Shown: piece after piece, positions 91-5,264 of the stretch
Position numbering within the stretch: the first letter of the stretch is position 1
How the letters are laid out: every line of letters begins with the position of its first letter
Origin: a virus
Taxonomy: Duplodnaviria > Heunggongvirae > Uroviricota > Caudoviricetes
Reading direction: 5' to 3' (one strand)
Length of the DNA stretch: 5,264 nt
IMG/VR virus record: IMGVR_UViG_2711768008_000020
The notes under the pieces: model-generated
What the model saw: only the letters and a program-made list of their open reading frames with translations
What the model was told of the DNA's origin: nothing
The model's database searches: none
Translations under genes and position numbers: made by a program

Positions 91-409
91 AGCCTTCTTG
101 AGGCTACCACCTGTTTTCAGGTGTCATTCAGACGTGATTTGCCCCAGATTGGGAAAGCACGCTTTTTTCTCAGCTATCGTCCTCTTATTTTGCCGTTACA
201 TTTCTTTTTGCATTCTAATGATTAATTTACAATAATAATATCGGTAATTATTGAGTAATAATAAATTAATTATTGCAAATGTAATTTAATTCCATCTTCG
301 CGTTATATTCCAATCTTTAATCTCCGCATGGAACAAGTTGCATGCGTGACTATATTAAGACGACTTATAACCACCAAAACATTTGCTTTGCAAGCAAAAA
401 CAGTGACCA

Positions 410-438
410 TTGACTCTAAGAAAATTCCGATCTATTGT
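410..438 (+). promoter_or_regulatory. Candidate sigma70-like promoter (TTGACT, 17-bp spacer, TATTGT)
   Basis: TTGACT at 410-415 and TATTGT at 433-438 with a 17-bp spacer. AT-rich DNA produces such hexamers by chance, so this is weak. Confidence 0.2.
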
Positions 439-722
439 TAGGGTCATCAAAGTTACTTAACAGTATTCCGAAATGAAAATACAAAGCAAGCTAATTGTCT
501 TATTAAACATTATTATTGCATTTATATTATTTGAGCTTTTAGCTCAAAAATTTGGTTTGAGTACATTATTTTAAAGCAAGATAAACAATATCGGGCACTC
601 TAGTTTTTATAATTAACAATTAAACGTCCATAAAATGTTATTTACTTTTCTTCGCTATTGTCATATCTTAATATAGTGGCTTACGCCACTCTACTTTCAT
701 CACATTTTGTACGTTTATGTAC

Positions 723-839: not shown

Positions 840-1421
840 TTACCCTATAGGTGCTACTGGCCATTCAATATCCGGTGCAGTTGATGTATCAACACGGTTC
901 AGCAACACCCGATACTTTTTCCAAGCTTCCAGCAACAAGGTTTCTTTCTCCGTTGCGATCTCCAGATCCACAGCATCCTGAAGCGGCGCTATATGCTCAC
1001 TGGCTACCTGCATCAGGCTGTTTTTTGTTTCTTCCGCCTCCCGGATCCGGAACAGTTTTTCTGCTTCCGTATCCTTCACCCAGGCTGTGCCGTTCCACTT
1101 CTGAAACTCCCCTTCCGGGGATAACCAGGTGACATTTTCCGGTAATGAGCCGAGTTCAGAAATAAATAACGCGTCGCCGGAAGCCACGTCATAAACCGTT
1201 TTACCCCGATGATCTTCAACGAGATGCCACGATGACTCATCACTGTTGAAAACAGCCACGAAACCAGCCGGAATATCTGGCGGTGCAATATCGGTACTGT
1301 TTGCAGGCAGACCTGTATGAGGCGGAATATATGCGTCACCTTCACCAATAAATTCATTAGTTCCGGCCAGCAGGTTATAAATTTTTATGGTCCGTGGTTG
1401 TTCACTCATTCTGAATGCCAT
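840..1421 (-). CDS. tfa: Tail fibre assembly protein (lambda Tfa / TfaE / TfaR family chaperone)
   Basis: 193-aa ORF starting [62 protein letters not shown], matching lambda-type Tfa as I recall it. ATG at 1419-1421 overlaps the stf stop by one base (TAATG). GAGG lies 8 nt upstream of the ATG. Stop TAA at 840-842. Confidence 0.92.
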
Positions 1422-4400
1422 TATGCAAGCCTCACAATATAGTTAAATGCGATGTTTTTGACGGTGTTTTCCGCGTTACCAGCAGCGTTAACGGTGATGG
1501 TGTGTCCATGTGAACCAATCGCAACAGAGTGCGTATGAGCACCAATACCGACAGTATGCGCGTGTGCACCCGCAGATGCTGCTGTGCCGGACAGTGAGTG
1601 TGTATGGTTTCCTTCTGNNNNNNNNNNNNNNNNNNNNNNNNNNNNNNNNNNNNNNNNNNNNNNNNNNNNNNNNNNNNNNNNNNNNNNNNNNNNNNNNNNN
1701 NNNNNNNNNNNNNNNNNNNNNNNNNNNNNNNNNNNNNNNNNNNNNNNNNNNNNNNNNNNNNNNNNNNNNNNNNNNNNNNNNNNNNNNNNNNNNNNNNNNN
1801 GCCACTGGTTAATGAGCCACTGATACCAACCTGATTAGTCCCGCTAACTTGAGTACTCCCTGCCGGAAACATTCCAGTAGGTTGACTCCCGCTATTCGTT
1901 CTGGGCCCAGTCTGACTATGTTGGTGGGCCCCAGCTGAACTTGTAGAGCCGCTCAGACTGTGCGTATGCGCCCCGGTGTTATTCGTGGATTTAGTGCCGT
2001 AATCAAACGACGATGTGGTTTTCGTCCCCAAATCCGTACTGGATGCGCTGGCGCTGTGGGTGTGCGATTTAATGCCATCCTGTTCCTGAGACAATACGGC
2101 ACGACCACTGGCGGGCTTGCCCTTAATCGTCCAGCCACGCATATCAGGGATCACGCCTGACGGATAAGCGGCTGCAAGTTTCGGGTAAGCAGATTTGTCA
2201 AAAGTCTGCCCCTGCATCAGGGCATAACCAGACGGAACGGTATCTGATGGCCACGGGATTGGTGCACCGACTGGATAAAACTCTGCAGGAGGATGAGCCG
2301 AGGTGTAAAGCTGCGCCCACGGCGACCAGTTTGCGTCGGTCGTATCCCGTCGTGAACGAATAAATGCCGGAGCATGAGCACCGCTTGTACCACTCCAGCC
2401 GATGAGTAACTCACCTTCGCCAACGGCTGTCATCCCTTTCAGGTGAATGATATTTCCATACGCTGTTGGATATCCGTTGTTATACACCTCGTATAACTCA
2501 AGACCTGCTGCCCCCTGCGTATTGTCTGTCAGCGCGGCTACCCGACCTTTTGAAGCCAGATTAACTGATGATACTGCTGTTCCACCTGACGGTAGCGCCC
2601 CGATCTCTGATGCCGTTGGCTTATTTCTGGAGTTATAGTCCCTTCGCCAGCCAGGTGAATAATCTGTTCCGTGATTAATATAGGTAAACTGGGCGTTGGT
2701 TGTTCCGCCACCGCTGGATGTGGTCGGAGTGGTAATGCGGATCGTCATCGCTGACTTTATCCCCATTACTTCAATGACAGCTCCGGCGAGATGAATATTA
2801 CCGCAGCCAGTATCAGTAATGATTTTATTATTGCCATAAGACCAGGAACCCTTGCACATCCAGTATGGATGGTTAAATGCTCCCTGAGAATCCAGCCACT
2901 CGATAAACTGTGCAGTCGTCCAGTTTCCTGTTGTTGTGCTTACTGACCCACCGAAGGCACGGCAGGCACCAATATTTTTCGTAAAGGTGTCTTTGCCAGG
3001 GATATCCGCACCGTTCTGATCTTTCTGCAGACGTTTCTCAGCATTGTCATTGGCTGCTTTTACTGCCTTTGGCGTTGCCGCCAGCGTTTCAGACGTGCTG
3101 TTGGTCGCGCTGCTTAGCTGGATTATCCCTTTCTGTGCTGTCGTTGCATCCTGTGCGGTGTATTTCCCGTTAGCCAGGTCATACGCGGCCTTAACGGCTT
3201 TTGGCGTTGCCGCCTGTGACTCGGAAGTGCTGTTAGTCGCACTGCTGAGCTGTACTATCCCCTTTTTCGTCGTGCTCGCATCCTCAAGCGCCACGGCGGA
3301 TGCAANTTTTGCCGCTGTCTCAGCGCGCGTTGCTGCAGATTCCGCCGTACTTTTGCTCTGAGCTGCCGCCGTCGCACTGCCAGCTGCCTCTGTCGCCTTC
3401 GTGGATGCCGTCGTGGCGCTGCCCTTCGCTGCTGACGCCTGTCTGGTCGCCTCATCTTTTGAAGCAGACGCCGATGATGCCGATGACGCCGCCGAACTGG
3501 CGGACGATGCGGCAGCCGTTTTTGAGGATTCTGCACGGGTTTCCGACGCTTTCGCGTTCGTTTCGGATGTCTTCGCTGCGGAAGCTGACCTCGCTGCTGC
3601 CGTGGCCTGCTCAGTGGCTTCGCCAGCCTTCGTTGTGGCTGTTGAAGCGGATGATGCGGCGCTTTCTGCCGATTTTCCGGCGGCGGTGGCACTGGCTGAG
3701 GCCTGCCCGGCACTTGTTGACGCGGCGCTGGCAGACGACGCAGCCGCTGTTTTTGAGCCTGCCGCAGCTGAGGCACTCTGTCCCGCTGCCGTTTCAGAAG
3801 ACCTGGCGTTCGTCTCGGACGTTTTGGCCGCCTTCGCAGAATTTGCAGCCGCCGTCGCCGAGGAAGCTGCGCTACTGGCGCTTGATGATGCGTTCGTTTC
3901 TGATGATTTTGCCGCCTCTTTTGAAGCCGACGCATCCCGGGCTGAGGTGGCAGCTTCTGACGCTTTCGTGGTCGCGGTGGATGCAGAAGTGGCTGCTGAT
4001 TGTTGTGACGCTGCCGCATTCGTTTCTAACGTTTTCGCCGCACCGGCACTGGTAGCCGCCGCGCTTTTTGAGGACTCTGCAGCGGCAGCACTTTTTGAGG
4101 CTTCAGTGGCCTTTGTTGATGCCGTTCCTGCGCTGGAAGACGCTGACTGAGCCGACGAAGCGGCCTGTCCGGCTGACGTGCTGGCTGCACGTGCTGAATC
4201 TGCAGCATCAGTCGCATGGGTTGCCGCCTCACGGGCTGATGTGCTGGCATCGCTGGCTGATTTCTTCGCGGCTGCCGTGTTCTGTGCCACCGCGGACGCG
4301 TTACGCGCCACCTCTTCCACCATCAGCTCAAAACGGCGCAGAGCCTCCGGACGGGCATCATCCTCCGTCATGGCACCGAGAAAATCATTCAGCGTACCGG

Positions 4401-4647
4401 GTCGGGAATCTTCATACACGGTGATGGTCCCGGCATGTGACGGCGGGAATCCCTCCACCAACAGAATAACGCTGTACTGCCCGTACTCAACGTCCATGCT
4501 GTAACGCCCGGCTTCATCCGGATTTTCTGAGGCCAGCGTGTTCACCACCACCGTGGTGCTGTTACGTTTTGCTTTCAGCTGGATTGTGCAGTTCTGTACC
4601 GGTTTTCCTGTGCCGTCTTTCAGTACACCTGAAATCTTTACTGCCAT
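1421..4647 (-). CDS. stf: Side tail fibre protein (lambda Stf / StfR-like), mosaic, interrupted by an assembly gap
   Basis: N-terminus [26 protein letters not shown] from ATG at 4645-4647 (the track's extra MN comes from an upstream GTG). It is followed by a long Ala/Ser/Thr-rich region, a duplicated KGI(V/I)[20 protein letters not shown] motif and a central domain. Downstream of the gap the correct frame reads ...[60 protein letters not shown] and stops at TAA 1421-1423. The track ORF ending at 1432 reads the last ~62 codons in the wrong frame because the 183-N gap is not the true length. Confidence 0.9.
1618..1800. other. Assembly/scaffold gap (183 N) inside the stf coding sequence
   Basis: Uninterrupted run of n from 1618 to 1800. 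Flanking coding frames differ by one base, so the real missing length is not 183. Confidence 0.97.
3052..3272. repeat. Direct tandem duplication (~132-bp period) inside stf encoding two copies of a tail-fibre repeat motif
   Basis: Core ttggcgttgccgcc occurs at 3069-3082 and 3201-3214 with similar flanks. The two copies translate on the minus strand to [27 protein letters not shown] and [27 protein letters not shown]. Confidence 0.7.
3300..4305. repeat. Low-complexity Ala/Ser/Thr-rich coding repeat region of stf (fibre shaft)
   Basis: About 330 codons dominated by A/S/T with recurring motifs ([27 protein letters not shown]). GCN-rich DNA on both strands generates three long shadow ORFs in other frames. 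Confidence 0.65.
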
Positions 4648-4656
4648 ATTCACCCC

Positions 4657-4685
4657 ACAAAAAAGCCCGCCTGAACCGGCGGGCT
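4657..4685 (-). terminator. Rho-independent terminator downstream of lom, immediately upstream of the stf ribosome-binding site
   Basis: Minus-strand AGCCCGCC (4678-4685), loop GGTTCA, GGCGGGCT (4664-4671), then TTTTTTGT, giving a perfect 8-bp GC-rich stem. It lies 26 nt after the lom stop (TGA, 4712-4714) and runs directly into GGGGTGAAT-ATG of stf. Confidence 0.6.
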
Positions 4686-4711
4686 GTCATAACACTGTGT
4701 TACCTGGCTAA

Positions 4712-5264
4712 TCAGAATTTATAACCGACACCCACGATGAAACCGTCAGTGCGCCAGTCACCACTGCCGGAACCTTCATAAGCGACATCAATGGCCACGG
4801 ACTCGGTCGGGTTAAACTGCACGCCAGCCCCCCACGCCAGAGACGTGTTGCTGTGGCGACCGTCATCACTTCCGGTCAGCACATCGTGCGTTTTCCCCTT
4901 ATTGTCAGTTACGCGGATATAATCCCCGGAAAAAGTCGACACACGGCTGTAAGCCACACCCGCCATCGCATACGCGCTGAACCATTCATTCACGCGCACA
5001 GACGGCCCCGCCATCACGCTGAACCAGCGGTTACGCACGGAATCTTCATACCAGCGGGTATCGCTGTAACGGGTCAGCTGGCGATTCTTGTCTCCTGCAT
5101 AGCTGAACGACGTCACCATCCCCAGTGTGTCCGTAAACTCATAACGGTATTTCACGTTAATCCCGTTCAGATCATCACTGCCGGGAACGTTCGTCGAGGC
5201 ATGAAGATACCCCGCGCTCAGCGTGGACTGATGTTCAGACGCCCATGCAGGCGCACCGGATACG
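4712..5264 (-). CDS. lom: Lom/Ail/PagC-family outer-membrane beta-barrel protein, partial (N-terminus beyond window end)
   Basis: Reading frame is open from the window edge to TGA at 4712-4714. C-terminus ...DVAYEGSGSGDWRTDGFIVGVGYKF and internal GINVKYRYE, VMAGP, SAYAMAGVA motifs match lambda Lom as I recall it. The track's start at 5155 is an internal GTG. Confidence 0.85.
   Translation of the reverse strand, partial: VSGAPAWASEHQSTLSAGYLHASTNVPGSDDLNGINVKYRYEFTDTLGMVTSFSYAGDKNRQLTRYSDTRWYEDSVRNRWFSVMAGPSVRVNEWFSAYAMAGVAYSRVSTFSGDYIRVTDNKGKTHDVLTGSDDGRHSNTSLAWGAGVQFNPTESVAIDVAYEGSGSGDWRTDGFIVGVGYKF

Follow-up and report, generated by a model that had tools for sequence, protein, structure and literature searches.

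A predicted YncL-like small membrane peptide encoded in an AT-rich module at the tail fiber end of a lambdoid (pro)phage

Gene organization of the window

The DNA analyzed here is a stretch of 5,264 nt from a Caudoviricetes virus (IMG/VR record IMGVR_UViG_2711768008_000020); it is referred to in its full length as the window, and all coordinates are positions in it. Based on its open reading frames (ORFs) and on annotated homologous loci, which are designated by L numbers (L001, L058 and so on), the window corresponds to the tail fiber end of a lambdoid (pro)phage (Table 1). Next to the tail genes, which have a G + C content of 49–56%, lies an unannotated AT-rich stretch with a G + C content of 31%. 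Within this stretch we describe a small gene for a 33-amino acid (aa) peptide with homology to the stress response membrane protein YncL, and the module of which the gene is part.

Table 1. Position and strand of the genes and features of the window.
Feature	Position	Strand	Remarks
End of an IS1 copy	1–90	minus	380 bp upstream of the small gene, outside the module; identical to 5911–6000 of L002, beside an annotated IS1A transposase
AT-rich unannotated stretch	91–839 (749 nt)		
Module	about 294–760	plus	directly downstream of tfa
Upstream part of the module	294–409	plus	presumed regulatory DNA; left limit of the homology common to all lineages
Sigma-70-type promoter-like element	410–438	plus	-35 TTGACT (410–415), 17-nt spacer, -10 TATTGT (433–438); from a consensus scan
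Predicted 5' leader	446–472 (~27 nt)	plus	A/U-rich, unstructured, no Shine-Dalgarno sequence
Gene for the 33-aa YncL-like single-pass membrane peptide MKIQSKLIVLLNIIIAFILFELLAQKFGLSTLF	473–574	plus	ATG start; assigned by conservation and YncL homology
Hairpin within the ORF	530–548	plus	perfect 8-bp stem, TTTGAGCT-TTT-AGCTCAAA; over the codons for FELLAQK
3' untranslated region	575–722	plus	575–639 poorly conserved, 640–722 well conserved
Predicted intrinsic terminator	723–755	plus	10–11-bp stem containing G + C, 3–5-nt loop, T-run; from scan and folding
tfa, tail fiber assembly gene	840–1421	minus	convergent with the small gene; near-constant right-hand neighbor
Side tail fiber gene	1432–4653	minus	
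Ail/Lom gene	starts at 4712	minus	

Conservation of the small reading frame

The small gene was proposed in an earlier reading of the window (the original prediction), and its ORF is present as described there, with an in-frame TAA at 458–460 just upstream of the ATG. That proposal carried the caveat that AT-rich DNA encodes hydrophobic peptides by chance, which is valid in general and is overturned here by conservation. In the window alone none of the described features exceeds chance, with about eight ORFs of at least 25 aa in or overlapping the AT-rich stretch; it is the related loci that lift the case above chance.

For the comparison, 81 copies were gathered from contigs of IMG/VR and of metagenomes and from annotated genomes. 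Some of them were found with a peptide-based pattern, and a pattern of the terminator only gave the same loci and three more. The original prediction had named conservation of the frame in homologous loci as a check, and the 33-codon frame proved to be intact in 81/81 copies, those truncated at a contig end aside. Together, the copies comprise seven nucleotide haplotypes and four protein variants.

One divergent lineage (L058, L087, L092, and L105) has only ~78% DNA identity to the window. Here, 18 nucleotide differences in the 102 nt of the ORF result in only five amino acid changes (V9I, I15F, F17L, E21K, and S30Y), so that 28 of the 33 residues are kept. ORF length, start and stop are unchanged, while the 65 nt past the stop codon are scrambled with indels. 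An apparent break of the ORF in the alignment of L058 and L087 is an artifact of gap placement at the stop codon; all 102 nt of the ORF are present, TAA included. The ratio of non-synonymous to synonymous substitution rates (dN/dS, Nei-Gojobori) is 0.09 in the comparison with this lineage and 0.04 in that with the L004/L005 lineage. When the same numbers of changes were placed at random, the frame was kept with as few amino acid changes in 0.02% of the trials for the L058 lineage (P 2e-4) and in 1.3% for the L004/L005 lineage (P 0.013).

The variable sites of the ORF are distributed over codon positions 1, 2, and 3 as 8, 2, and 13, respectively, and the first-position changes are mostly synonymous exchanges between the CTN and TTR codons for leucine. 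There is no real indel inside the ORF, whereas the flanks do carry indels. Each of the five other ORFs of at least 25 aa in the module has a lost start codon, a gained stop codon or a frameshift in at least one lineage, leaving 473–574 as the only one of six that is intact in all lineages. The sequence comparisons thus establish the frame as coding; from the purifying selection at the codon level we conclude that it is, in all likelihood, translated.

Homology of the peptide to YncL

The peptide has a grand average of hydropathy (GRAVY) of 1.51 and a single hydrophobic core at residues 7–23 (best 17-aa hydropathy window). Other features are two N-terminal lysines, a conserved Asn12 in the predicted helix and a conserved QKFG motif at its end.

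The original prediction had also suggested a search against small-protein and toxin families, which was productive for the former only. NCBIfam gave a single match, 'stress response membrane protein YncL' (NF000537), over profile positions 1–28 of 30, with 25.0 bits (E 1.3e-5) for the window peptide and 23.5 bits (E 3.7e-5) for the L058 variant. As the score is below the equivalog cut-off of 35 bits, we classify the peptide as a homologue or paralogue and not as YncL proper. Pfam contained no match, toxin families included, even at E-values up to 10, and PHROGs gave no usable match. Alignment with YncL of Escherichia coli K-12 (MNVSSRTVVLINFFAAVGLFTLISMRFGWFI) by BLASTP is gapless with 11/28 identities (E 2e-7), and hhalign of the four phage variants against 15 YncL orthologues gave a probability of 93.7% (E 2e-7) over 29 gapless columns.

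Since hydrophobic peptides can match spuriously, a hidden Markov model (HMM) built from the 15 YncL orthologues was also scored against shuffles of the peptide. The real peptides reach 20.7–23.2 bits, a range attained by 0/20,000 shuffles of the composition (maximum 14.9 bits) and by 0/20,000 shuffles that keep the polar ends and the hydrophobic core (maximum 20.4 bits). A degenerate DNA pattern of the shared positions, run over 596 Gb of GTDB genomes, gave 25 hits, all of them true yncL genes (Escherichia, Citrobacter, Shigella, and Intestinirhabdus); because the pattern was derived from the pair, this shows its specificity and not independent significance. The scan returned chromosomal yncL only, and no further phage-type branches. 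Across the phage variants and 15 distinct YncL sequences (25 genomic loci), Ser5, Lys/Arg6, Asn12, and Lys/Arg26-Phe27-Gly28 are invariant.

Judged by its sequence, the peptide is a diverged, phage-borne paralogue of YncL and not YncL itself. The description of the product as a small prophage membrane protein in the original prediction is therefore sustained by the purifying selection, the hydrophobic core, the location in a lambdoid (pro)phage and the YncL homology.

Transcription and translation signals

A consensus scan of positions 1–900 identified five promoter-like sites, vs 4.4 expected from shuffles. The element TTGACT-17-TATTGT upstream of the gene, which the original prediction had pointed out, is present, with a predicted transcription start at ~445–446. 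As TTGACT-17-TAT(T/C)GT it is the sole promoter-like motif on either strand that matches at least 9/12 consensus positions at the same place in all five lineages compared (the -10 is TATCGT in the L058 type). The element is free of indels, and its variable sites amount to 0.17 per nt, vs 0.32–0.34 in the flanks. Because the motif is conserved, we consider a promoter at this position plausible.

The lack of a recognizable Shine-Dalgarno (SD) sequence, another feature noted originally, was confirmed: the best anti-SD duplex of the 20 upstream bases with the 3' end of the 16S rRNA has a free energy of +0.1 kcal/mol, vs -7.2 kcal/mol for K-12 yncL. The leader and the start of the ORF are less structured than expected, with a local fold of 446–510 at -2.3 kcal/mol vs -4.45 kcal/mol for shuffles. 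An unstructured A/U-rich leader is a known condition for SD-independent initiation.

Upstream of the putative promoter, the ORFs 303–410 (minus strand), 328–441 (plus strand), and 355–450 (minus strand) are broken in other lineages, so that no ORF in 294–409 survives everywhere. A block at 294–375 is kept in every lineage of the module, even across mosaic joints, and contains neither a conserved ORF nor a match to an RNA family.

The 3' region and the predicted transcript

The hairpin within the ORF is present as originally reported but is not conserved. A GCT to GAT change breaks it in the L004/L005 lineage, and two of its eight base pairs are lost in the L058 lineage. We therefore rejected it as a functional element, and it is probably incidental to the codons for FELLAQK.

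Downstream of the ORF, the number of variable sites per nt is 0.42 at 575–639 vs 0.22 at 640–722. The latter segment is as conserved as the ORF. It holds U/A-rich sequence that is unpaired and a hairpin (675–690), in which C681T changes one pair to G-U without loss of pairing. The fold of 640–757 has a z-score of -6.6. An argument for a small RNA (sRNA), based on higher conservation in the 3' block than in the ORF, is weakened by the mosaic nature of the L058 lineage, which is L006-like at 280–375, unique at 376–690 and L005-like from about 690 onward.

The predicted terminator is strong and present in all lineages, and the changes in it are confined to the loop, the stem base and the tail. 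It appears to act in one direction, since on the minus strand the stem has no T-run after it. The predicted plus-strand transcript would extend from ~445 to ~755 (~310 nt). As it converges on tfa, late phage transcription would run antisense to it. Rfam searches in sensitive mode, covering the window and the uninterrupted 1.5-kb intergenic region, identified nothing in the module.

Distribution of the module

The AT-rich stretch (91–839) is matched at least partly in 1343 of 5426 complete E. coli genomes. The block with the promoter-like element and the ORF (405–580) and the 3' block (640–760) are each found in 827 of the 5426 (~15%), at 934 and 933 places, respectively, and always on the chromosome. 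The two blocks co-occur in these 827 genomes and form one module. The possibility that the 3' block is an independent mobile element was rejected because of this one-to-one co-occurrence; the one apparent exception, L059 (around 12587), reflects a different IS1 insertion that cuts the module at the equivalent of window position ~718. The module occurs at several prophage sites, in up to 3–4 copies per E. coli genome. Among 50,697 phage records it is present in four, representing three distinct sequenced temperate lambdoid phages (mEp332, PhiR70_1, and ev099, the last deposited twice). A tblastn search against phages gave no match and is uninformative, as these four records do hold the intact ORF; the low-complexity filter is the probable cause.

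The small gene is covered by no annotation in the homologous records and was not called by PGAP in any of the listed genomes. 'Hypothetical proteins' annotated in two of the phages correspond to other ORFs, namely 328–441 (PhiR70_1), which lacks its start codon in all other lineages, and 58–225 (ev099). The exact peptide is present in a collection of ~15 billion protein sequences, from ENA and JGI gene calls only and unnamed. A phmmer search against 1.84 billion representatives yielded nothing beyond the peptide and a frameshifted form of it, single-sequence searches being too weak at a length of 33 aa.

Genomic context

On its right, the module is flanked by tfa or a remnant of this gene in nearly all annotated contexts, PhiR70_1 being the only one without tfa annotated there. 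The left-hand neighbors vary, and include an AraC-family regulator with IS remnants at the lambda attachment site near bio-ybhB, sitABCD, ydfJ at a Qin-like site, and yodB. In the IS1-free alleles and in the phages, the next gene past the module encodes an AraC-family regulator of 247 aa (L001 4501–5244, minus strand; also L008 and L009), and 1.5 kb of unannotated AT-rich DNA lie between this gene and tfa. This regulator is 28% identical to K-12 AppY (E 2e-35). A link to the tfaX-appY region of the K-12 prophage DLP12 was rejected, as there is no DNA similarity and the AraC-type neighbor is just 28% identical to AppY.

The IS1 insertion at the left end of the window is also present in strain 2009C-3133 (L002, 5248–6000), where about 550 bp are lost relative to the IS1-free L001. 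With the separate insertion in L059, the AT-rich module appears to attract IS1. In L001, positions 5828–5900 (~100–170 bp to the left of the equivalent of window position 91) resemble by eye the 3' part of a Ser-like tRNA, with T-arm and acceptor. ARAGORN identified no whole tRNA in this segment, and Rfam gave just weak matches resembling tRNA or tmRNA ends. It is possibly a remnant attachment site that marks a mosaic joint.

In the side tail fiber gene, a run of 183 N at 1618–1800 and a single N at 3306 represent an assembly gap or masking, and the listed 1073-aa product is unreliable there. A hairpin resembling an intrinsic terminator (GCCCGCCGGTTCAGGCGGGC followed by a T-run) is located on the minus strand at 4657–4690, between the lom and tail fiber genes, and is solely responsible for a weak Rfam match to 'Trp_leader.' A full-length match to the Rfam family RF02111 ('IS009') at 880–1078 (minus strand, 218 bits, E 2.7e-54) lies wholly within the tfa coding sequence, indicating that this RNA family coincides with a conserved part of tfa genes.

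Discussion

We propose, with a probability of about 0.7, that positions 294–760 form a self-contained AT-rich moron at the tail fiber end of a lambdoid (pro)phage, producing a YncL-like single-pass membrane peptide. In line with a moron, the module combines a conserved promoter-like motif and a terminator with a deviant G + C content and a patchy presence (three distinct phages and 15% of the E. coli genomes), and it is carried by viable phages (mEp332, PhiR70_1, and ev099). The peptide extends a known small-protein family by a new member that is phage-borne, and does not represent a new kind of system.

We infer the promoter, the terminator, the membrane topology, the activity and the regulation as follows. 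Based on the conserved motifs, the module would be transcribed from its own promoter into an RNA of ~310 nt that ends at the terminator. Translation would start at the ATG at 473 without an SD sequence, on the unstructured A/U-rich leader, and yield a 33-aa peptide with one predicted transmembrane helix (~7–23). By analogy with YncL, the product would insert into the inner membrane as a single helix, and the positive-inside rule predicts a cytoplasmic location for its lysine-rich N-terminus. YncL, a verified inner-membrane protein of 31 aa, is induced in minimal medium and by heat shock (PMC12542507, PMC5437024). Its production leads to sublethal membrane depolarization, nucleoid condensation and a phage-shock response (PMC12542507). 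Likewise, the phage peptide may mildly depolarize the membrane, and its expression in a lysogen could lower membrane potential and metabolic activity, consistent with a function in lysogenic conversion or stress tuning.

Several observations weigh against this proposal. The scores of both variants against NF000537 are below the equivalog cut-off, the promoter motif by itself is no better than chance in AT-rich DNA, and the gene has no SD sequence whereas all chromosomal yncL genes have GGTGG. With just three or four lineages, which moreover are mosaic, the selection tests rest on few independent events. The depolarizing activity is extrapolated from the overproduction of a 39%-identical protein, and a full-text literature search returned no paper that mentions the peptide. 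In addition, the frameshifted form found by phmmer (protein P0003) is a 43-aa product that departs from the frame after Gln25-Lys26, probably in the A/T run at 547–553; this form reflects a sequencing error or, alternatively, an inactivated allele of rare occurrence.

That the ORF is a functionless product of chance in AT-rich, H-NS-type prophage DNA, conserved through recent common ancestry of the prophages, we regard as highly improbable. Such a view would accommodate the number of ORFs in the same 749 nt, the missing SD sequence, the silence of the annotation pipelines and the fact that most copies are at least 95% identical. It does not explain how the ORF of the divergent lineage could retain its length, start, stop and 28/33 residues next to a scrambled 575–639, nor the permutation values (P 2e-4 and 0.013) or the significant similarity to an experimentally verified protein family. 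The codon-periodic substitutions and the low dN/dS go beyond what RNA function alone would leave, and they make it unlikely that the locus is chiefly a regulatory RNA, in which the transcript or its ~80-nt 3' end (676–755) would act as an Hfq-type sRNA on host or phage mRNAs and the ORF would be secondary or the RNA dual-function. The conservation of 640–722, at the level of the ORF and far above that of 575–639, is what such an RNA would predict, as is the fold of the 3' end (z = -6.6), in which a hairpin on the 5' side and unpaired U/A-rich sequence precede a U-tailed terminator. Positions 641–669 also contain a weak promoter-like motif, TTTACT-17-TATCTT, and the sigma-S-dependent yncL transcript of Salmonella was first catalogued as the sRNA STnc1110 (PMC5437024). 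Yet there are no compensatory base-pair changes, only one change from G-C to G-U, part of the 3' conservation stems from mosaic ancestry (the L058 type being L005-like from about 690), and no Rfam family matches. A small RNA derived from the 3' untranslated region at 640–722 is possible, though unlikely, next to the coding function.

The original prediction had likened the peptide to type I toxins and proposed a search for an antisense RNA. Under that explanation, the mRNA of a membrane toxin would be kept in check by an unrecognized antisense or partly complementary small RNA, such as a minus-strand RNA running from 664–635 across the ORF. Size and architecture are fitting, as a 33-aa peptide with a basic N-terminus, one hydrophobic helix and its own predicted mRNA falls within the limits of size (at most 60 aa) and hydrophobicity of type I toxins, and it is prophage-borne. 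Moreover, production of YncL is mildly toxic and depolarizing (PMC12542507), and RseP-dependent turnover in vivo is common to YncL and the Hok toxins (PMC10470546). The only minus-strand candidate for a cognate antisense RNA is the promoter-like site ATGACA-18-TAACAT at 664–635, but other lineages have ATTACA or ATAGCA in place of its -35, and a conserved terminator is lacking on the minus strand. A motif scan of both strands identified no minus-strand promoter that is conserved at the same position across the five lineages, and sensitive Rfam searches identified no known antitoxin RNA. The toxin comparison of the original prediction is not supported, the only NCBIfam match being YncL and no Pfam toxin family matching at E-values up to 10. 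Type I toxin mRNAs of enterobacteria typically have long folded leaders, in contrast to the short, unstructured leader found here, and we know of no toxin-antitoxin pair that includes YncL. Taken together, a type I toxin is quite unlikely. A doubtful combination of these possibilities is a dual-function or toxin-like unit, in which a phage-captured YncL-family peptide is paired with an RNA regulator, either the Hfq-type sRNA from the 3' end (676–755) or an antisense RNA from 664–635. If true, the prophage could switch the membrane potential and the metabolic state of the lysogen, affecting persistence, phage exclusion or the timing of induction, and the unit would provide a mechanistic link between type I toxins and the 'benign' class of YncL and YohP.

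As a probable moron for a YncL-like peptide, the module is of interest for several reasons. Annotation systematically overlooks small membrane proteins, and no pipeline calls this gene although roughly one in seven complete E. coli genomes and viable temperate phages carry it. It also shows that there is a phage-borne branch of the YncL family, for which membrane depolarization and nucleoid condensation were recently reported; this branch offers a natural handle on the purpose of these peptides. The gene adds a candidate factor of lysogenic conversion and a clean example of a conserved gene without an SD sequence. The residues common to both branches (Asn12 in the helix and Lys/Arg-Phe-Gly at its end) are positions worth mutating.

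Comparison with known systems

The closest relative is YncL (E. coli b4598, 31 aa; Salmonella STM14_1932). The two are nearly equal in length, have a single transmembrane helix at residues 7–23, align end to end without gaps and are each made from a tiny monocistronic unit (predicted for the phage gene). They share Met1, Ser5, Lys/Arg6, Val/Ile8-9, Leu10, Asn12, Ala16, Leu19-Phe20, Leu22, and Lys/Arg26-Phe27-Gly28. They differ in that their identity is just 38–39% and in their C-terminal tails, LSTLF in the peptide vs WFI in YncL. The peptide gene is located in a prophage moron beside tfa, whereas yncL lies in the chromosomal patD-yncL-ortT locus under sigma-S and heat-shock regulation. The GGTGG present in all 25 chromosomal yncL genes is absent from the phage gene, which has a 180-nt 3' untranslated region with a conserved hairpin and terminator. 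YohP, a 27-aa stress-induced small membrane protein, belongs to the same functional class as YncL, causing depolarization and nucleoid condensation on production (PMC12542507). No sequence similarity between YohP and the peptide was detected, YncL being the sole match in NCBIfam.

The type I toxins (Hok/Gef, Ldr, TisB, Ibs, ShoB, ZorO, and DinQ) are likewise small hydrophobic single-helix peptides with a basic N-terminus on mobile elements, and by analogy the peptide plausibly perturbs the membrane potential as they do. In vivo, YncL is turned over in an RseP-dependent manner, as are the Hok toxins (PMC10470546). Unlike these toxins, the peptide has no sequence match to any of their families, no cognate antisense RNA was found, and its leader is short and open.

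In organization, the module resembles lambdoid morons such as lom and bor of lambda and cargo genes located past the tail fiber genes. It is an independent unit of (predicted) promoter, gene and terminator with a G + C content of 31% vs about 50% in its neighbors. It lies where the late region ends, is transcribed in the direction opposite to the late operon and occurs in a subset of related phages only. Unlike in the classic morons, its gene is much smaller and unannotated, and the product belongs to a small-protein family of the host.

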